From Candidatus Woesearchaeota archaeon (GTDB lineage Archaea; Nanobdellota; Nanobdellia; Pacearchaeales; GW2011-AR1), in the NCBI GenBank assembly GCA_964538405.1, contig CAZIET010000002.1, positions 1 through 37,551 on the forward strand: a stretch of DNA of 37,551 nt. Reading direction: 5' to 3'. Below are positions 1-6,847 of this stretch, in pieces (positions within the stretch are counted from its first letter, which is position 1; every line of letters begins with the position of its first letter). The notes under the pieces were generated by a model. It worked only from the letters and a program-made list of their open reading frames with translations. It was not told the origin of the DNA and did not search any database. The position numbers and the translations under genes are program-made.

Positions 1-27
1 AATACCAATTCTTAGTAATAATGTAAA

Positions 28-315
28 ATGAAAAAGATATTTTATACACCTCATTTAAAATTAAGATTAAATGTTAGAAAATTTCCCGAAAATTATCCAA
101 GATTAGTCTATAAAAATCCCGAGATGAAATTTTTTGACAATCTGGAGAAAAATAAAATAGCTGTAAAAAGACTTAAATATGGCAATGGCATTAGAAATAT
201 TATGATAGCTTATGAAGAAAATAAGGACAAAATCAGCATAATAACGATTCATCCGATTTCGGACGAAAAAATAATAAACAGAACCCTGAGTGGGAGATGG
301 ACAGAAGATGAATAA
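28..315 (+). CDS. DUF4258-like small toxin candidate
   Basis: 95 aa. Size and the C-terminal ...ISIITIHPISD strand pattern resemble DUF4258. It overlaps the downstream DUF2283-like gene by 8 nt, a typical TA pair layout. Confidence 0.5.
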   Translation: MKKIFYTPHLKLRLNVRKFPENYPRLVYKNPEMKFFDNLEKNKIAVKRLKYGNGIRNIMIAYEENKDKISIITIHPISDEKIINRTLSGRWTEDE

Positions 316-505
316 AAAATATAACTATGATGCAGAATCAGATTCCCTTTTTATTAACCTTAAGGAAGGAGAAGAGGAGAGCTTTGAAGAAGTTGCTCCC
401 GGAATAAACATGGAGCTTGATAAAGATGGAGGGATTATAGGGATAGAAATTCTTAAGGCATCCCGTTTTATTAAGGATTTAAGGAAAGAGAATTTACCTG
501 TTTAA
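308..505 (+). CDS. DUF2283-like antitoxin candidate
   Basis: YNYDAESDSLFINL ... GGIIGIEILKAS matches the YD-x-E-x-D-x-L-x-I ... GIEIL hallmark of DUF2283. The ATG at 308 (overlapping the upstream stop) is preferred to the track start at 290. Confidence 0.65.
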   Translation: MNKKYNYDAESDSLFINLKEGEEESFEEVAPGINMELDKDGGIIGIEILKASRFIKDLRKENLPV

Positions 506-614
506 AAGGCAGAAATTCATTGAAAATTTAACAATTGAAAACCAAAATCTAAAAAATGAATTGGCAACATTGAAAAAATCCCTGTACAATCTTGGAGCAA
601 CTGAGTGGTGTTAG
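504..614 (+). repeat. Cassette-boundary element copy 1 (5'-truncated, most divergent)
   Basis: It starts at the stop codon of the preceding gene. The in-frame reading is KRQKFIENLTIENQNLKNELATLKKSLYNLGATEWC-stop (tag 612-614), with no start codon. The 3' flank aaatcaaatta is identical to that of copy 6. Confidence 0.85.
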
Positions 615-675
615 AAATCAAATTAATCTAGCATAAATTCCACAATAAATTTATATAATTCTACTCTTAACTTAA

Positions 676-1278
676 ATGATGGAGAGTGGAAAAGGATATA
701 TTCTTGAAGGGGATACAATAGTGATAAATAGGGATTTGACGGGTCTTGATATGTTCCTGAAAAGTTTTCTTAACATCCTGAAAAAGCATTCTGATTATCT
801 TGTTGTAAGTGGGTATGTAAGCATCTCAACAGGAAGGACAAGAGGAACAGAGGATATTGATGTCCTTGTGCCGGCCATAGAAAAAGGGAAATTCTCTAAT
901 TTGTTCCATGATCTGCAAAAGAACGGCTTCTGGTGCTATCAAGGAGACGCAATAGGAGAAGTTTATCCATACATCAAAAATATGGACAGCATCAGATTTG
1001 CCAAAACCAATGAGATGTTTCCAAACATAGAATTCATCCCAATCAATAAATTAAGGAAGGCAAAATATTTTGAGTTTACACATCCCCAGAATGCAAAAGT
1101 AAAGGATTTTGAATTCAAAATTCCACCAATTGAATTTGAGATACTATACAAAGAAATAATCTTGAAAGGAAAGAAAGACATTGAAGATGCCCAACATCTA
1201 AGGACATTTTTTTCAGATATGTTAAAAAAAGAAAGATTTAAAGAATATGAAAAAATAATAAGGGAAGAGTTAAAATGA
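676..1278 (+). CDS. Nucleotidyltransferase-fold protein (MNT/AbiEii-like TA component candidate)
   Basis: VVSGYVSISTGRTRGTEDIDVLV has the G[SG]...DxD signature of minimal NTases. An AT-rich TATA-like aaatttatataatt lies about 25 nt upstream of the ATG, suggesting a leaderless transcript. Confidence 0.55.
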   Translation: MMESGKGYILEGDTIVINRDLTGLDMFLKSFLNILKKHSDYLVVSGYVSISTGRTRGTEDIDVLVPAIEKGKFSNLFHDLQKNGFWCYQGDAIGEVYPYIKNMDSIRFAKTNEMFPNIEFIPINKLRKAKYFEFTHPQNAKVKDFEFKIPPIEFEILYKEIILKGKKDIEDAQHLRTFFSDMLKKERFKEYEKIIREELK

Positions 1279-1484
1279 AACCTATGAATAATTTGGATTA
1301 TGTTAAGGTGTATTCCAAGAAAATGAGACTTGATAAGAGTTTGTTTGATCAGCAAAAAAGGCTTATTGAAGATCAATTAAAATCCAGTTCATCTTTGTTT
1401 AGAGAAATGTTTAAAAATAAGGATTTTAAACTGAACGCGAGAAAATATCTGAAAAGTGTTGGGTTAATAAAAACCAAGATCTAA
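1275..1484 (+). CDS. Small helical protein, partner of the NTase-fold gene
   Basis: 69 aa with an ATGA stop/start overlap with the upstream gene. No family recognised. Confidence 0.4.
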   Translation: MKPMNNLDYVKVYSKKMRLDKSLFDQQKRLIEDQLKSSSSLFREMFKNKDFKLNARKYLKSVGLIKTKI

Positions 1485-1546
1485 AAAACGACAATTTTGC
1501 AATGAAACAATCCCTGTGCAATCTTGGAGCAACTGAGTGGTGCTGA
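1466..1546 (+). repeat. Cassette-boundary element copy 2 (A-type, 5'-truncated)
   Basis: In-frame reading NKNQDLKNDNFAMKQSLCNLGATEWC-stop (tga 1544-1546). The last 48 nt are identical to copy 4. It overlaps the final 19 nt of ORF 1275..1484 in another frame. Confidence 0.85.
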
Positions 1547-1562
1547 ATTGAGTTTAAAGGAA

Positions 1563-1922
1563 TTACTCTTTAATGCGAAATCCAAAAGAGGAAACAATGA
1601 AAAGTTTACCTTTAAACTCTGCTGGTTTAACTTTATCAAACAATTTTAAAAGAGATAAAAAGAGCACATCAATTTTTGGAGGATGTATGTCCATGAAAAT
1701 TATACCTGGGTGTTCTTTTGGAGGAAATAACCTCCTGTTAATGAAATGTTTGTCAAAAGTCAGCATTATCCTTGATTTTTCTTTTGCTATTTTTGAGATT
1801 TGTCTGTCTGTTGAACCTAAAGGGACAATATTAACATTAAATCCTTTCTGCCTTAACAATTCAGTTAGCTTGGCCGGGACGTTTTCATCAGAAAGAAGGT
1901 TTGGCTTATCGGAATAAAACAT
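1563..1922 (-). CDS. DUF5615-like PIN-fold toxin candidate
   Basis: LLSDENVP ... IMLTFDKHF ... GIIFMDIHP parallels the paralog at 2603..2959 (FLDANIP ... ILVTKDLDF ... GVIILRL). It overlaps the DUF433 gene by 17 nt. Confidence 0.6.
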   Translation of the reverse strand: MFYSDKPNLLSDENVPAKLTELLRQKGFNVNIVPLGSTDRQISKIAKEKSRIMLTFDKHFINRRLFPPKEHPGIIFMDIHPPKIDVLFLSLLKLFDKVKPAEFKGKLFIVSSFGFRIKE

Positions 1923-2142
1923 ATTTTTCGTCCTCTACAAGTTTGGAGGCATGGCTCAAAACAGATAAAACAGCTTTCCTACTAATCTGTGGAAAATAAT
2001 CTTTTATAATCTCATCAACAGTTACCCCACCTGCAAGCAACTCCAATACTTGCCAAATCATAATCCTTGTTCCCTTAAATACGGGTTTTCCCTCACAGAC
2101 TTCACTATCTGCAACAATATATTCATTTATTTCTACTCTCAT
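1906..2142 (-). CDS. DUF433 antitoxin-like protein
   Basis: CEGKPVFKGTRIMIWQVLELLAGGVTVDEIIKDY matches the G-K-P-x-I-x-G-T-R-I ... G-x-S-x-E-E-I signature of DUF433. Confidence 0.75.
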   Translation of the reverse strand: MRVEINEYIVADSEVCEGKPVFKGTRIMIWQVLELLAGGVTVDEIIKDYFPQISRKAVLSVLSHASKLVEDEKYVLFR

Positions 2143-2179
2143 AAAATAATAATATTGCGGAACTATTTAAATTTTTGTA

Positions 2180-2336
2180 ATGTCTTTTCTACAAAATCCT
2201 CCAAGAACAGCAAAAATTCATTAAAAATCTTACAATAAAAAACAAAGATTTGAAATTAAACATCACAATTTTAATGAAAGACAATGCTGCAATGAAACAA
2301 TCTTTATGTAATCTTGGAGCGAGTGAGTGGTGCTAG
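2180..2336 (+). repeat. Cassette-boundary element copy 3 (B-type, with a 21-nt in-frame insertion)
   Basis: In-frame part 2202-2336: QEQQKFIKNLTIKNKDLK[LNITILM]KDNAAMKQSLCNLGASEWC-stop (tag). The conserved ATG at 2180 is one nucleotide out of frame with it. Confidence 0.85.
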
Positions 2337-2349
2337 AAAAGCTTAAATA
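2337..2349 (+). promoter_or_regulatory. BRE/TATA-like box carried by the 3' flank of B-type repeat copies
   Basis: aaaagcttaaata directly follows the repeat stop codon. The same 13-mer follows copy 5. It lies about 25 nt upstream of the ATG at 2371, spacing that fits a leaderless archaeal transcript. Confidence 0.45.
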
Positions 2350-2364
2350 TTCTAAGAGCGTTTA

Positions 2365-2601
2365 GTGAATATGGGAAATATTATTGTGAATGAAAAAATA
2401 AGGCACGGAAAACCGGTAATAAAAGGAACAAGGGTAACTGTGGATGAAATATTAGGGGCATTAATAGGTGGAATGTCTTATGAAGAGATAGAGCGAGAAT
2501 ATGGGGTAATAAAAGAGGACATAATTGCAACAATAGAATACGCAGCTTCTTTAATTAAGGGTGAAGAAGTGCACAAGTTCAAGGATAAATTACCTGTCTA
2601 A
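2365..2601 (+). CDS. DUF433 antitoxin-like protein
   Basis: RHGKPVIKGTRVTVDEILGALIGGMSYEEIEREY is the DUF433 signature. The likely true start is the ATG at 2371 (the track start is GTG). Confidence 0.75.
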   Translation: MNMGNIIVNEKIRHGKPVIKGTRVTVDEILGALIGGMSYEEIEREYGVIKEDIIATIEYAASLIKGEEVHKFKDKLPV

Positions 2602-2602
2602 A

Positions 2603-2959
2603 ATGAAGTTTTTCCTTGATGCAAATATACCTAACTCTTCAACTGGTATTTTCAAAGAACTTAATTATGACGTCCAACATGCAAGAGATATTGGCATGGC
2701 TAATTCTTTAGATAGTGAAATAATTAATTATTCTACAAAAAACAAGCGAATTTTGGTTACTAAGGATTTAGATTTTGGCAACATACTAAATTACCCAGTA
2801 AAATCGCATGTAGGAGTTATAATTTTAAGACTTCCTTTTTATTACAATGCAAAACAAATCAATAGGGTTTTACTAAATTTCCTCATGATAGTTAAAGAAA
2901 AAGAAATTAAAAATTCTGTTACTATTTTAGAAATTGGGAGATATAGGACACGAAAATGA
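2603..2959 (+). CDS. DUF5615-like PIN-fold toxin candidate
   Basis: MKFFLDANIPNSS ... ILVTKDLDFGN ... GVIILRL. An ATG at 2603 just after the DUF433 stop is preferred to the track start at 2561. Confidence 0.6.
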   Translation: MKFFLDANIPNSSTGIFKELNYDVQHARDIGMANSLDSEIINYSTKNKRILVTKDLDFGNILNYPVKSHVGVIILRLPFYYNAKQINRVLLNFLMIVKEKEIKNSVTILEIGRYRTRK

Positions 2960-3094
2960 ATGCGTCCGTTTCGACAAATTCAAGAACAGCAAAAATTCAT
3001 TGAAAATCTTACAATAGAAAACCAGAATTTGAAAAAAGACAATGCTGCAATGAAACAATCCCTGTGCAATCTTGGAGCAACTGAGTGGTGCTGA
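2960..3094 (+). CDS. Intact 44-aa coiled-coil peptide ORF, which is cassette-boundary element copy 4 (A-type)
   Basis: The ATG at 2960 abuts the TGA of the upstream gene (tgaatg). Product: MRPFRQIQEQQKFIENLTIENQNLKKDNAAMKQSLCNLGATEWC-stop. It is below the ORF-track size cutoff. Synonymous-biased divergence among copies supports it as coding. Confidence 0.6.
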   Translation: MRPFRQIQEQQKFIENLTIENQNLKKDNAAMKQSLCNLGATEWC

Positions 3095-3098
3095 GAAA

Positions 3099-3515
3099 TT
3101 ATAAACTTTCAAAAGTATCTAATAGCTCCCTTGGAGAAATTATCCTGACCCTATTCTGCTTTTTGAGGCCCTTATCCCCTGAGAATATTGGGCACTTTAA
3201 CTTTAACGCAAGCGCCAGATAAGGTGCATCCTTAAAATTTAGTTTAAATGCCTCTTGCAATTTATCGGCAAACTCTGAAGAATGGACTACTACAATTTGC
3301 TCTTTTATGAAAGATAGTATCTCCAAAACATCTCTTTTTGGCAATTTTGTTTCATTTAGAATTCTTGTCATTTTGGAATCAAGTTCGGAAAACATAAATT
3401 CGGGAGATACAAATTCAAATTTTCTGAACAATTTATTTTTCTCAAATATCTCGAAACTATTGCCCCTATTTACAAGGGCTGAAAAGATCACATTCACATC
3501 AACTACGATCAGCAT
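3099..3515 (-). CDS. PIN-domain protein (VapC-like toxin candidate)
   Basis: MLIVVDVNVIFSAL ... DAPYLALALKLKCPIFSGDKGL shows the acidic residues in the positions expected of PIN. It is a paralog of 4216..4611. Confidence 0.7.
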   Translation of the reverse strand: MLIVVDVNVIFSALVNRGNSFEIFEKNKLFRKFEFVSPEFMFSELDSKMTRILNETKLPKRDVLEILSFIKEQIVVVHSSEFADKLQEAFKLNFKDAPYLALALKLKCPIFSGDKGLKKQNRVRIISPRELLDTFESL

Positions 3516-3527
3516 TTATACCCATCC

Positions 3528-3758
3528 TTATGACTTTGATAATCGCTCGTATCTTCTTGCAAGGGAAAGATTTATTTCATCAGACAATTCATCAGCTTTT
3601 TCTTCTGTTAATTTTGACTTGGAAACATTCTGCTTTGCTCGTGCTATTCTCTCTAATTCTTCGTTTATTTTCCTTGCTATAACTAACTGCCAGTTTATTT
3701 TTTTAGACATGGCAAGTTCTTTCAGTTCATCAGGTATCTTTACTCTTATCTCTACCAT
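3528..3758 (-). CDS. Small antitoxin candidate upstream of PIN gene
   Basis: 76 aa. An N-terminal VKIPDELKE strand followed by helices is RHH/CopG-like. It ends 12 nt before the PIN gene start. Confidence 0.45.
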   Translation of the reverse strand: MVEIRVKIPDELKELAMSKKINWQLVIARKINEELERIARAKQNVSKSKLTEEKADELSDEINLSLARRYERLSKS

Positions 3759-3796
3759 GTGGAGTTCAAGCCTAAAAACTATATAAATCTTTTCTT

Positions 3797-3950
3797 AATG
3801 CTACGACAGGTTTGCTCCTGTTTTGACGGAAGCTATACAGGAACAGCAGCAATTCATTGAAAATTTAACAATTGAAAATCAAGATTTGAAAAATGATAAT
3901 GCTGCAATGAAACAATCTTTATGTAATCTTGGAGCGAGTGAGTGGTGCTA
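3797..3950 (+). repeat. Cassette-boundary element copy 5 (B-type, longest 5' extension)
   Basis: In-frame 3798-3950: CYDRFAPVLTEAIQEQQQFIENLTIENQDLKNDNAAMKQSLCNLGASEWC-stop (tag). The ATG at 3797 is one nt out of frame. About 66 nt are identical to copy 3, including the flank aaaagcttaaata. Confidence 0.85.
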
Positions 3951-3963
3951 GAAAAGCTTAAAT
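3951..3963 (+). promoter_or_regulatory. BRE/TATA-like box carried by the 3' flank of B-type repeat copies
   Basis: aaaagcttaaata lies about 25 nt upstream of the ATG at 3986. It is identical to 2337-2349. Confidence 0.45.
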
Positions 3964-3985
3964 AAAAGCAGACTTATGATTAATC

Positions 3986-4219
3986 ATGGAAACAATTATT
4001 AAGATTCCGAAAGAACTAGAAACTGACTTAAGGAGGTTTGTTCATGAGCTTGGGTTTAGTGGAGACTCTGAGTTTGTTGAGGAAGCTGTAAAGGATAAAG
4101 TTCTGGAGTTAAAAAGGAAGGAATTTTTTAAAGTCAGCGACAAAATTGCACAGGCACTTAACGGAAAAGGAATTAATCACAGAGAAATGCTGGAAGATTT
4201 TGAAAAATCTAGAGAATGA
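3986..4219 (+). CDS. Small antitoxin candidate (RHH/CopG-like)
   Basis: 77 aa with an N-terminal IIKIPKELETDL strand followed by helices. ATGA overlap with the downstream PIN gene. Confidence 0.5.
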   Translation: METIIKIPKELETDLRRFVHELGFSGDSEFVEEAVKDKVLELKRKEFFKVSDKIAQALNGKGINHREMLEDFEKSRE

Positions 4220-4611
4220 AAATCAAGATTGCAGTGGATGCGACACCAATTGTTTCTGCGTTAATAGGTGGTGTGAGTAGAAGTGTTTTATTTAACCGCA
4301 GATTTGAATTTATCTCAACAGAATATACTTTTGAAGAAGTAAAAAAATATACTGGAATAATATCCAAAAAATCAGGGGTTAGTGCAGATGAAGTTAGAAA
4401 GGCATTAAACTTTCTTCCAATCAGGGTATATCCAAAAAAGCACTATAAAAAAGATATTCAAAAAGCCAATAAAATTATCGGTAAAATAGACAAAAAAGAT
4501 GCTGATATCTTAGCTTTAGGCCTTAAAGAAAAATGCCATATTTGGAGTGAAGATAAAGATTTCAGGAACAATAAAGAAATAATGTTAATAAGAACTAAAG
4601 ATTTAATCTGA
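4216..4611 (+). CDS. PIN-domain protein (VapC-like toxin candidate)
   Basis: KIAVDATPIVSAL ... DADILALGLKEKCHIWSEDKDF. It has the same family pattern as 3099..3515. Confidence 0.7.
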   Translation: MKIKIAVDATPIVSALIGGVSRSVLFNRRFEFISTEYTFEEVKKYTGIISKKSGVSADEVRKALNFLPIRVYPKKHYKKDIQKANKIIGKIDKKDADILALGLKEKCHIWSEDKDFRNNKEIMLIRTKDLI

Positions 4612-4674
4612 ATATTAAAAATAATCTGGGATAAGGATGGAAAAGAATAAAGAAATAACATAAATAACTTTGCG

Positions 4675-4734
4675 AACGACAATCCTGCAATGAAACAATC
4701 TTTATGCCAATTGGGAGCAGCTGAATGGTGCTAG
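4675..4734 (+). repeat. Cassette-boundary element copy 6 (shortest; defines the common core)
   Basis: In-frame NDNPAMKQSLCQLGAAEWC-stop (tag 4732-4734), followed by aaatcaaatta as in copy 1. It is the last copy before core-type genes. Confidence 0.8.
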
Positions 4735-4803
4735 AAATCAAATTAGTTTGGATTGATTATTATAATAGAAAACCTTTTTATTCTTCCTTTATTTAATTAT
4801 TGA

Positions 4804-5880
4804 ATGAAAAGGGCGTGTATAATTTTGTTTTTGATTTTTCTTCCATTAGTGGATGCAGATGTTGTTTCTGTAAATTCAGGGGGAAGTTCTGGGGTCGTTG
4901 TAAGCTCTAATTCAATTATAGAAGGGTTTTTTACCAACTTATCTTTATGCGGAAATTCTTACACTGAAATAGGAGAGCAATGCGATGACGGAAACACAAA
5001 TAACGGAGACGGATGTTCAAGTTCTTGTTTGACCGAAGCAACTACCACTACTACAACAGGTGCTGATGCTGGGGGCGGGGGAGGTGGAAGTGGCGGAAGT
5101 GGTTCATCTTCACCATTAATTACTGCAAAAGACCTATTTGTTGATCCTCCAGAGTTGAGCATAATTGTGGTAAAAGGGGTGGAAGAACACACAGAAATAA
5201 TTTTTATTAACAAAGGTGATCTTCCCCTGCAAATTGCAATGGAAATTAGCGGTGATGACATAAAAAGTGTGTTGACAAGTGAAGAAAACCTGTTCTCACT
5301 TAATCCTGGGCAGCAAAAAGTTCTGATTTTAAAAGTCAATGTGCAGTCTGAGGAACTTCTTACTGGGAAAATAATAGTAAAGTATTCCGGATTTACGAAA
5401 GAAATTCCTGTTGTAATAGCGCCCCAATCGGAAAATTTTCTTTTTGATATATCTGTTTTTTTGGGAAGCGCGTTTAAGAAAATAATTGCCGGAAACAAGC
5501 TTGATGCCCAATTTAATTTATTGGAAGTTAATGTAAAAGAAAAAGTAGATGTTACTGCTACATATGTCATAAAAGATTTTGACGGGAACAAGCATTACGA
5601 GTCAAGTGAAACTTTCTTTGTGCTGGGAGAAAAGACTTATTATAAGGAGTTTCCTACTGAAACGCTGCCTGCCGGAAGGTATGTTCTGGGATTTGAAATT
5701 GTTTATCCCCAGGCCTTTGCAGTTTCATCGGCTACTTTCGAGGTTGTTGATCCATTGAAATTTAATTACAAGTTTTTGATTATAGGGATAACAATTCTTG
5801 GGACAGTGGTTGTTTTATGGTTGGCAAAAAGAATTTTTTTCAGGAATGCTGATGAAAAACAGCAAGGTTTAAATGGTTAA
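4804..5880 (+). CDS. Surface protein: signal peptide, Cys-rich repeat, T/G/S linker, two beta-rich domains, C-terminal TM anchor
   Basis: The N-terminal hydrophobic segment is MKRACIILFLIFLPLV. CGNSYTEIGEQCDDGNTNNGDGCSSSC matches the Cys-rich repeat pattern C-x-x-G-E-x-C-D-D-G-N-x-x-x-G-D-G-C. The linker is TTTTTGADAGGGGGGSGGSGSS. The C-terminal helix is FLIIGITILGTVVVLWL followed by basic residues. Confidence 0.7.
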   Translation: MKRACIILFLIFLPLVDADVVSVNSGGSSGVVVSSNSIIEGFFTNLSLCGNSYTEIGEQCDDGNTNNGDGCSSSCLTEATTTTTTGADAGGGGGGSGGSGSSSPLITAKDLFVDPPELSIIVVKGVEEHTEIIFINKGDLPLQIAMEISGDDIKSVLTSEENLFSLNPGQQKVLILKVNVQSEELLTGKIIVKYSGFTKEIPVVIAPQSENFLFDISVFLGSAFKKIIAGNKLDAQFNLLEVNVKEKVDVTATYVIKDFDGNKHYESSETFFVLGEKTYYKEFPTETLPAGRYVLGFEIVYPQAFAVSSATFEVVDPLKFNYKFLIIGITILGTVVVLWLAKRIFFRNADEKQQGLNG

Positions 5881-5925
5881 ACAATTCTGTTGTGTAGCAA
5901 CATTTATATAGCATTATACATTTAA

Positions 5926-6462
5926 ATGTATCACATGATACAAAAATGTAGCCTAATTGCTGTTCTTGAAGTGTTTTTTAAAGAGCCTACTTCTATACAT
6001 TTTGTAAGAGAGATAGGAAGAAAAATCAGCTTAGCGCAGACATCTGTTAGAAACCATATAAAAGAACTTGAAAAAAACGGCCTTGTTGTGAGGCAGGAAT
6101 CAAAACCTTTCGATGGGTTGGTTGCAAATAGGGAAAATGAAAAATTTATTTTTTATAAACGGGTCTACAATATGCACTCTCTTTGTGATCTAAAAGATTC
6201 AATTGTTCAATTAATGCATCCAAGAGCGATAATCGTTTTTGGTTCTTATCAGAGAGGAGAGGATATGGAGAAGAGCGACATAGACATTCTTGTCTTGTCA
6301 AGGGTCAAGAAAGAAATAAATCTCAAAAAATTCGAGAAATTGTTGAATAGAAAAATAAATATCAATTTTGTGAATAATTTAAAGAATTTAGATCTTCCTT
6401 TAAGGATTAATATTTTGAGCGGACTGACATTATATGGGGGGATAAATGAGGGAGATATTTAA
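5926..6462 (+). CDS. wHTH + minimal nucleotidyltransferase (MNT) protein
   Basis: An N-terminal winged-helix-like segment is followed by GSYQRGEDMEKSDIDILV (GS-x10-DxD). Confidence 0.7.
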   Translation: MYHMIQKCSLIAVLEVFFKEPTSIHFVREIGRKISLAQTSVRNHIKELEKNGLVVRQESKPFDGLVANRENEKFIFYKRVYNMHSLCDLKDSIVQLMHPRAIIVFGSYQRGEDMEKSDIDILVLSRVKKEINLKKFEKLLNRKININFVNNLKNLDLPLRINILSGLTLYGGINEGDI

Positions 6463-6847
6463 AATAAGCAAGGACCTCATTAGGGCAAAGGACTTATACA
6501 AAACTGCCAAGGATAGATTATATGAAATAATTCCCCTCTTCCCAAAAGATAAGTCTTATAAAATTATTGAAGAGTATTATGAGATTATGGTTCAGCTAAT
6601 AACATCAATTATGTATTCAGATGGTTACAAAACCTTAAGCCATACGGGATTAATCCAATATTTAGCTACAAATTATACTGAATTTAGCAGGAATGAATTA
6701 AACACGATTGACATTTTGAGAAAATTGAGGCATGGAATAGTTTATTATGGGAAACAAGCGGAGAAAGAATTTCTTCTTAACCACGAGGATTCAGTAAAAG
6801 AACTCATAGACAAATTAATTAAAATTATAGAATTTAAGATAAAATAA
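6446..6847 (+). CDS. HEPN-like helical partner of the MNT gene (putative)
   Basis: The 133-aa sequence looks all-helical. RKLRHGIVYYG resembles the R-x(n)-H HEPN motif, though the spacing is short. It overlaps the MNT gene by 17 nt. Confidence 0.45.
   Translation: MREIFKISKDLIRAKDLYKTAKDRLYEIIPLFPKDKSYKIIEEYYEIMVQLITSIMYSDGYKTLSHTGLIQYLATNYTEFSRNELNTIDILRKLRHGIVYYGKQAEKEFLLNHEDSVKELIDKLIKIIEFKIK

Follow-up and report, generated by a model that had tools for sequence, protein, structure and literature searches.

A surface-fibre gene end repeated between small predicted toxin-antitoxin operons of a Pacearchaeales archaeon: a probable array of recombination scars

Introduction

Why is a run of small predicted toxin-antitoxin (TA) operons divided by copies of one short direct repeat, and where does this repeat come from? 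The question is raised by the start of contig CAZIET010000002.1 (C2 in this study) of the assembly GCA_964538405.1 (G000), a Candidatus Woesearchaeota archaeon assigned to the Pacearchaeales. The stretch analyzed, positions 1 to 37,551 of the contig, is called the window below. The assembly comprises 584 kb in 45 contigs and is 80% complete, and its closest named relatives are Candidatus Pacearchaeota and Nanoarchaeota metagenome-assembled genomes (MAGs); all genomes compared in this study are incomplete MAGs. An earlier, sequence-only reading of the window proposed that A-type and B-type copies of the repeat alternate, that each B-type copy lies between mirrored pairs of related TA cassettes, and that the B-type copy provides the promoter of the cassette that follows it. 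In this study, the repeat is traced to the 3' end of a surface-fibre gene, and the explanations for its multiplication are weighed against the architecture of the locus and of related genomes.

Results

Six direct copies of the repeat

The copies were aligned at their stop codons, the last bases of which are at positions 614, 1546, 2336, 3094, 3951, and 4734. The window contains six copies, all in direct orientation on the plus strand and with a spacing of 758 to 932 nucleotides (nt). Copy 1 (498..625) ends with the stop codon TAG at 612-614 and is the most divergent copy, matching the other tails at 37 to 47 of 60 positions. The two A-type copies end with TGA; copy 2 (1463..1546) matches the tail profile with E=4.8e-13, and copy 4 (2960..3094) has 44 codons and an ATG that adjoins the upstream stop. 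The B-type copies carry a post-stop flank that resembles a B recognition element (BRE) and TATA box. Copy 3 (2181..2349) contains a 5-codon insertion, the stop codon TAG at 2334-2336, and the flank at 2337-2349, and copy 5 (3799..3964), which is the longest with 50 codons, has its flank at 3952-3964 and a profile match of E=4e-28. The end of the array is formed by copy 6 (4651..4745), with 27 open codons and the stop codon TAG at 4732-4734. A seventh copy is located near the end of contig C33, 26 nt from the contig end, and the search of the whole genome gave no copies beyond these seven. Weak tail matches on contigs C13 and C43 fall in ordinary coding sequence for coiled-coil or ribosomal proteins and were rejected.

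Copies 2 and 4 share 49 identical nt that end with the TGA, and they diverge from the very next base. For copies 3 and 5, the identity extends over 67 nt, i.e., 54 nt plus the 13 post-stop nt AAAAGCTTAAATA, which include aaaagcttaaata. Copies 1 and 6 have a common post-stop flank of 11 nt (AAATCAAATTA), and their bodies are alike at only 39 of 60 positions. The sequence-only reading had described these same relationships, giving 48 nt for copies 2 and 4, about 66 nt for copies 3 and 5, and a third flank for copies 1 and 6; the stop-anchored alignment confirms them. Exact repeats of 49 to 67 nt exclude chance by far.

The repeat as the 3' end of a surface-fibre gene

The 44-amino-acid (aa) reading of the repeat is the C-terminus of open reading frames (ORFs) of 317 to 5214 aa in at least nine genera of the same family. 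In the tail alignment, these proteins end with ...AIQEQQ-(coiled coil)-SLCxLGxxEWC*, and in four relatives the Pfam domain Peptidase_S74 (PF13884) is located directly upstream of the tail (E 6e-10 to 2e-12). Endosialidases and tail fibres have Peptidase_S74 as their intramolecular chaperone. The tail of the relatives is a C-terminal extension that follows this domain in fibre-like proteins rich in 'VGIGTTTP' repeats, whereas the PF13884 core gave no match in any of the copies or anywhere in the G000 assembly; the copies are therefore tail fragments rather than domains, and appear as non-functional ends. Judged from these similarities, the repeat is the last 19 to 51 codons plus the stop codon of a Peptidase_S74-tailed surface-fibre gene. 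It had previously been regarded as an independent element; the present data instead make it a scar derived from the 3' end of a large gene.

The reading frame is open through to the stop in all seven copies. In the 19 codons that they share, the minimum number of changes is 12 synonymous and 13 non-synonymous, while 19% of the possible single changes are synonymous. This synonymous excess argues that most of the divergence between the copies took place while they belonged to a translated gene. The same enrichment, the seven open frames, and the ATG of copy 4 at the upstream stop would also suit a functional micro-gene, i.e., a coiled-coil peptide of approximately 44 aa that is under purifying selection, for example, as a cassette-linked regulator. 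This is highly improbable, since the same sequence forms the C-terminus of giant proteins in relatives, the truncation points vary from 19 to 51 codons, and most copies have neither a start codon nor a promoter. Moreover, decayed scars occur in two related genomes (copy 1 of G259 and a scar of G087 ending with 'LCDMGVL*'), which are frameshifted or prematurely stopped.

Contig C33 carries a 1189-aa exported ORF at 2850-6497, which shares 47% identity over the N-terminal 130 aa, and further repeat matches, with the 864-aa S74-tailed protein of the related genome G403. By this sequence similarity the ORF is identified as the fibre body, and its TAA is followed, in frame, by a 19-codon tail scar ending with EWC*. 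The Peptidase_S74 domain of the ORF has been lost, and its C-terminus is unique and Cys-rich; the right junction of this replacement is inside the tail, as for the cassette junctions. A gradient of scar age along the array was considered and not seen, the similarity to the C33 copy being non-monotonic.

Cassettes between the scars

Cassette 1 (28..505, plus strand) encodes a 95-aa putative toxin (28-315) and a DUF2283 protein (308-505; Pfam E=1.3e-16). Cassette 2 (679..1484, plus strand), which has its own TATA box 29 nt before the ATG at 679, consists of an unclassified 200-aa protein and a 69-aa ORF, and searches of Pfam and NCBIfam with these proteins gave no match. The last approximately 10 codons of the 69-aa ORF (1275-1484) read into copy 2 in a different frame, and thus the scar provides the C-terminus and the stop codon of this ORF. 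Cassette 3 (1563..2171, minus strand) is inverted and contains a DUF5615 gene (1563-1922) and a DUF433 gene (1906-2142), both assigned by Pfam, with the TATA box TTTAAATA at 2164-2171. The same two families form the forward cassette 4 (2371..2959, plus strand), with DUF433 at 2371-2601 and DUF5615 at 2603-2959 (Pfam E=5e-17 and 1e-22, respectively). Cassette 5 (3099..3787, minus strand), again inverted, contains a PIN_2 toxin gene (3099-3515; Pfam E=4e-19), a gene for a 76-aa VapB-like antitoxin (3528-3758) with a weak NCBIfam VapB match, and the TATA box TTTATATA at 3780-3787. In the forward cassette 6 (3986..4611, plus strand), a 77-aa antitoxin (3986-4219) precedes a PIN_2 toxin (4216-4611; Pfam E=3.6e-23). 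The VapB-type family matches of the PIN-linked antitoxins are weak.

Five of the pairs consist of small adjacent or overlapping genes with a known domain, as in type II TA systems. From their sequences, the two DUF433/DUF5615 pairs, the two pairs of PIN_2 with a small upstream gene, and the pair of DUF2283 with the 95-aa partner are predicted type II TA operons. Pfam agrees with the families and orientations proposed earlier, with minus-strand cassettes after copies 2 and 4 and plus-strand cassettes after copies 3 and 5. The only two DUF433 genes of the assembly are those of cassettes 3 and 4, and the only two PIN_2 genes are those of cassettes 5 and 6. The mirrored partners share 28.6% (DUF433), 25.0% (DUF5615), and 30.6% (PIN) aa identity, and the antitoxins of the two PIN pairs have no significant BLAST match to each other, in keeping with the earlier description of the paired cassettes as divergent, non-recent paralogs. 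An origin of the mirrored pairs by local inverted duplication was rejected, because partners that are 25 to 31% identical are no closer than unrelated members of their families.

Promoter geometry at the junctions

Among TATA-like octamers before 455 long ORFs, the distance from the first base to the A of the ATG peaks at 29 nt (n=14), with counts of at most 4 at other distances. This mode fits the prediction that transcripts are mostly leaderless in G000. It is also useful for choosing start codons in the lineage, e.g., the ATG at 679 and not that at 676. In the array, an octamer is found exactly 29 nt from the ATG of the inverted and forward DUF433 genes, the inverted and forward antitoxin genes, and the 200-aa gene (ATG 679). 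For the forward cassettes 4 and 6, this octamer is CTTAAATA of the common B flank (2342-2349 for the ATG at 2371). Two intact genes of relatives have the same geometry: in G403, ...EWC is followed by TGA, GAAAAG, and TTTAAATA, and a DUF433 gene begins with its ATG after a further 21 nt; in G193, 6 nt separate the TAA from TTTAAATA, and a lipoprotein gene begins with its ATG after another 21 nt. The B unit thus corresponds to the native layout of tail, stop codon, and promoter of the next gene.

The sequence-only reading had placed a BRE/TATA-like box approximately 25 nt before the ATG, and this box is recovered at 29 nt in both forward cassettes. Its further claim, that the repeat donates the promoter of the forward cassette, holds as far as position goes, through the 29-nt mode and the native layout in G403 and G193; as to function, the B flank is supported as a putative BRE/TATA promoter of a leaderless forward operon.

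Reconstructed locus

On contig C33, rpS7 and rpS12 (minus strand) are followed by the fibre gene (plus strand), the scar, and the contig end. The window, for its part, continues beyond copy 6 with a gene for a 358-aa exported surface protein with a DUF4215 domain (4804..5880, plus strand; Pfam), which is the conserved neighbour on the far side of the insertion hotspot. In the genome G129 of the same genus (contig C13 of that assembly), rpS7 and rpS12 are directly followed by a 372-aa orthologue of this surface protein and then by orthologues of the 402-aa and 429-aa genes. By this synteny, the end of C33 is located directly before position 1 of the window, and the sister species has the 'empty' arrangement, with neither fibre gene nor array at this site. 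No tail scars were detected in G129 (87% complete). Its fibre gene is found elsewhere, downstream of a coiled-coil gene.

The end of C33 and the start of C2 overlap by 5 nt, and the join would put a ATTAAATA box 31 nt before the ATG at 28; the gap between the two contigs may hide further cassettes. The reconstructed order is fibre gene, scar, DUF2283 pair, scar 1, 200-aa/69-aa pair, scar 2 (A), inverted DUF5615/DUF433, scar 3 (B), DUF433/DUF5615, scar 4 (A), inverted PIN/antitoxin, scar 5 (B), antitoxin/PIN, scar 6, and the 358-aa surface protein. The array is thus composed of at least six small predicted TA operons behind a giant surface-fibre gene, with copies of the gene's tail between them.

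Two neighbouring observations concern the surroundings of the array. In G360, a genome of the same genus, an antitoxin/RelE-like pair (contig C2 of that assembly, reverse strand, 369-817) is located directly upstream of a fibre-gene orthologue that is 77% identical to that of C33; the pair resembles one that lies between scars in G403, and TA operons therefore gather on the 5' side of the fibre gene as well. In the window, positions 5926-6847 contain an MNT-type nucleotidyltransferase with an N-terminal winged helix-turn-helix and a 133-aa partner, flanked by two paralogous surface proteins. This pair has no adjoining tail scar, and the distance from its TATA box to the candidate starts, 23 or 32 nt, departs from the 29-nt mode.

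Arrays of the same architecture in related genomes

The genomes of the family were searched with the tail profile, followed by local re-scanning, ORF maps, and Pfam. Similar scar arrays are present in at least five other genera (G403, G087, G347, G259, and G352), with the families HicA, HicB, NYN, RelE, PIN, ParE, MNT, HepT, HEPN, MazF, and DUF2283. The array of G403 has three scars, in the order intact fibre gene, DUF433/DUF5615, scar, HicA, scar, antitoxin/RelE-like plus NYN, scar, AbrB/PIN, antitoxin/ParE, and a conserved lipoprotein; contigs C59 (start) and C6 (end) of this genome are joinable across a split DUF5615 gene. G087 has four scars with MNT/HepT, an inverted HEPN/MNT, a DUF2283 pair, and MNT/HEPN. 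Three scars are found in G347, with HicB and RHH/MazF, two in G259, with PIN operons, and three in G352, with an ATPase and a nucleotidyltransferase-like pair. None of the approximately 20 orphan copies from six genomes extends further upstream than the last 51 profile positions, and each continues in the direction of the stop. Several of the arrays are located at contig ends, and MAG assemblies break at tail-scar arrays in several of the genomes examined. A pattern scan of metagenomes returned two contigs, each of which has intact tailed genes and lacks an array, and the corresponding scan of genome contigs gave no match. On contig C3 of G259 (reverse strand, 1941-2322), the orthologue of the forward PIN gene at 4216-4611 of the window seems to be broken, with a 78-aa open frame; nucleotide similarity runs to just before the next scar, the upstream scar is frameshifted, and the array appears to be decaying.

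Some cassettes are more conserved across these genera than core genes are. The DUF2283 cassette shares 81% nucleotide identity over 444 nt and 73 to 80% aa identity with a cassette of G087, which is likewise between tail scars, and the forward PIN cassette 6 shares 65 to 75% aa identity with cassettes of G347 and G259, compared with 64 to 69% for a universal GTPase and 41 to 42% for PyrB. The tails, on the other hand, cluster by genome: copies 2 to 6 of G000 and the C33 copy match one another at 47 to 58 of 60 positions and the tails of other genomes at 35 to 48 of 60. Shared cassettes between lineage-specific tails indicate that cassettes would have moved or been exchanged between lineages, ending up between local tails.

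These data also bear on a simpler origin, in which the scars are the debris of tandem full-length fibre paralogues left by ordinary deletions, and TA operons are there by chance without any targeting of the tail. Several S74-tailed genes, some in tandem, do occur in relatives; contig C32 of G186 has frames of 586, 156, and 77 aa in series, and G102 has at least three tailed ORFs. Such an origin is nevertheless very unlikely, because random deletions in genes of 300 to 5000 codons would not leave some 20 orphans that all lie within the last 51 codons and all reach the stop, because the cassettes adjoin the scars within 0 to 60 nt, and because cassettes are exchanged between genera.

Alternation of the repeat subtypes

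The sequence-only reading also claimed that the window contains two super-units of the same grammar. As a mobile or selected unit, this would be a composite super-cassette bounded by A copies, in which a B copy carrying divergent promoters has an inverted TA operon before it and a forward one of the same family after it. Two consecutive instances are indeed present, with identical A ends and identical B ends, and the only DUF433 and PIN_2 genes of the assembly are mirrored neighbours. A post hoc enumeration gives 24/720 = 0.03 for a random order of the six cassettes to yield both inverted-then-forward pairs of the same family. In addition, the order in G259 is inverted PIN operons, scar, forward PIN operon, and scar, and in G087 MNT/HEPN pairs are present on both sides of a scar. 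Against this, there are only two instances, and partners just 25 to 31% identical are no closer than ordinary members of their families. The inverted PIN of the window and those of G259 are not orthologues (33%), the pair in G087 is convergent rather than divergent, and no other divergent DUF433 pair was found among 400 family genomes. All three TGA-type tails of G403 precede forward cassettes, and the A-like C33 copy (TGA) is followed by a TATA box and, by synteny, the forward DUF2283 cassette. The inverted DUF433 of cassette 3 shares 53% identity with the forward DUF433 located behind the intact fibre gene of G403, and inverted tail relics were not found beside the inverted cassettes. A super-cassette of this type is therefore improbable.

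The arrays of G087, G347, G259, and G352 show no A/B alternation; with n=2 in the window, the proposed grammar does not hold as a general rule. Subtype and orientation are linked in part for a trivial reason: a forward leaderless operon needs the TATA flank, and an inverted one brings its own. The identities of copy 2 with copy 4 and of copy 3 with copy 5 are best read as one or two recent events of gene conversion or duplication rather than as a grammar, so that the interpretation offered earlier is partly supported. Inversion of cassettes via inverted tail copies was rejected as well, as no significant relic was found; the one match with p=0.013 is a 14-nt A/T-rich sequence.

Discussion

Recombination at the fibre-gene tail

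On balance, we consider it rather probable that the array is a series of recombination scars, in which the 3' end of the fibre gene served repeatedly as the junction for the insertion or exchange of small, self-promoted TA operons. The junction would consist of the terminal coiled coil ending with SLCNLGAxEWC, the stop codon, and the BRE/TATA box that natively belongs to the next gene, and each event would leave one more 5'-truncated copy of the tail. Homologous recombination is the most likely agent, rather than a dedicated integrase. The tail may act as a portable homology, since it is the best-conserved stretch of highly variable fibre genes and lies directly against a promoter. Cassettes could be looped out as circles and inserted by a Campbell-type event, a tail-flanked cassette could re-enter at any tail, and unequal crossing-over between alleles with different cassettes would lengthen the array. 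Gene conversion between copies would produce the exact identities of copies 2 and 4 and of copies 3 and 5 around unrelated cassettes, as well as the mosaic of 5' parts, 3' parts, and flanks. The nearly exclusive TA content may be due to retention: DNA flanked by direct repeats tends to loop out and be deleted, and addictive operons should survive there. The B-type copy would be the native unit of tail, stop codon, and promoter, reused for a leaderless forward operon, and the inverted cassettes would rely on the TATA boxes that they carry.

A dedicated recombinase is a serious alternative. An integron-like platform is conceivable, in which an unrecognized site-specific enzyme uses the fibre tail as its attachment site and the TATA box after the stop codon serves as the cassette promoter. 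All repeats are direct, the cassettes are uniformly small (0.75 to 0.93 kb spacing), and the left junctions are sharp, the identity ending precisely with the stop codon in A-type copies and with the TATA box in B-type copies. Arrays are present in at least six genera, and the same cassettes lie between lineage-specific repeats in different genera, a pattern like that of the genome-specific attC sets of chromosomal integrons (PMC9668308); such an enzyme would explain the sharp left junctions and the sharing across genera better than homologous recombination does. Nevertheless, neither tyrosine nor serine recombinases were found in the 584-kb assembly, and none were seen in the arrays of relatives. 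The tyrosine recombinase profile PF00589 gave no match at E<=1 in the assembly, which is 80% complete, while 14 of 14 control genomes were positive, and the assembly also has no match to the resolvase profile PF00239. The repeat has no hairpin potential on either strand: when four copies were folded on both strands in search of an attC-like structure, the z values were -0.90 to +1.90 against 200 shuffles, with no conserved stem, and Rfam gave no match at E<=1 in positions 1-6000 of the window. On their 5' side, the copies reach to different points (19 to 51 codons), and a cassette subfamily that is forward in G403 is inverted in the window. A platform of this type thus appears rather unlikely, although not so unlikely as the other alternatives considered above.

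Several points weigh against homologous recombination at the tail as the whole explanation. With 80% of the assembly present, a recombinase could be unassembled, or it could be supplied by a virus or plasmid. The identical stretches between tails of different genera are short, so that the sharing of cassettes across genera is not easily explained by homologous recombination alone. A process that duplicates the target of the recipient itself would likewise be compatible with shared cassettes inside lineage-specific tails. In a streamlined genome, the good preservation of approximately 60 nt in each of the seven scars hints at some constraint, which would not be expected if the copies were scars and nothing else. 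Finally, the movement of cassettes at the scars is a putative one, suggested by sequence comparison.

Implications

DPANN archaea have tiny, streamlined genomes, and we know of no general route by which they acquire accessory genes. The end of the fibre gene looks like a recurrent docking site for selfish cassettes, which, if true, would be a concrete mechanism of gene flow in these archaea. More speculatively, and with considerable doubt, a cassette-capture platform may exist in Pacearchaeota and related DPANN archaea, analogous to integrons in function but differently built, in which the last approximately 60 to 150 nt of a fibre gene plus the TATA box form a site of attachment and expression. 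TA cassettes, and occasionally others, may be inserted there, exchanged across genera, and expressed, with an unrecognized recombinase or the RadA machinery as the agent. To our knowledge, the origin of cassette-bounding repeats is still unsettled for chromosomal integrons; in the window, the origin of the repeat is visible as the 3' end of a gene together with the promoter of the next. Two practical consequences follow for annotation and assembly: short 'conserved micro-ORFs' between cassettes can be gene-end scars, and such repeats break MAG assemblies exactly at the hotspots.

Comparison with known systems

Diversity-generating retroelements were rejected as an explanation; the reverse transcriptase profile PF00078 has no match in the assembly, and the differences between copies (C/T, G/A, C/G, and A/G, at all codon positions) are not adenine-specific. 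Integrative elements that insert at the 3' ends of tRNA or protein genes generate direct repeats (attL/attR), and serial insertions can result in arrays of partial 3' ends. The units of the window differ from such tandem elements in being 0.7 to 0.9 kb long, without integrase or replication genes, and in that the limits of the repeat are not fixed.

A likeness is also found in rhs and cdiA loci, in which a large gene for a surface or secreted protein is followed by 5'-truncated fragments of its own 3' region, each with small genes. The usual explanation of these orphan arrays is that recombination in the conserved region of the gene displaces earlier modules. The window shares with them a gene followed by serial truncated 3' fragments and small genes. 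Its fragments, however, lack a variable toxin domain and instead carry an invariant terminal helix and stop codon, and its small genes are independent predicted TA operons with their own promoters in either orientation. Since no toxin domain is fused to the core fragments, an orphan array of the Rhs or contact-dependent inhibition type was rejected.

The most similar cassette arrays are those of sedentary chromosomal and archaeal integrons (Ghaly et al. 2022, PMC9668308), in which each genome has its own set of attC sites and for which the defining features of integrons have been set out. Like these, the window is a tandem array of short cassettes, each bounded by one direct repeat (approximately 60 to 130 nt) in a single orientation; TA cassettes are prominent, some of them inverted with their own promoters, and a promoter is located at the array junction. 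In contrast to attC, the repeat of the window is the coding 3' end of a gene rather than an imperfect palindrome, and its length varies by 5' truncation. Without IntI or any tyrosine recombinase in the assembly and without the attC hairpin, assignment of the array as an integron was rejected. Full-text literature searches did not find TA cassettes separated by fibre-gene tail fragments described in archaea. The fibre-gene-tail scar array of TA cassettes can be placed as a variant of the known architectures of cassette arrays and orphan modules.

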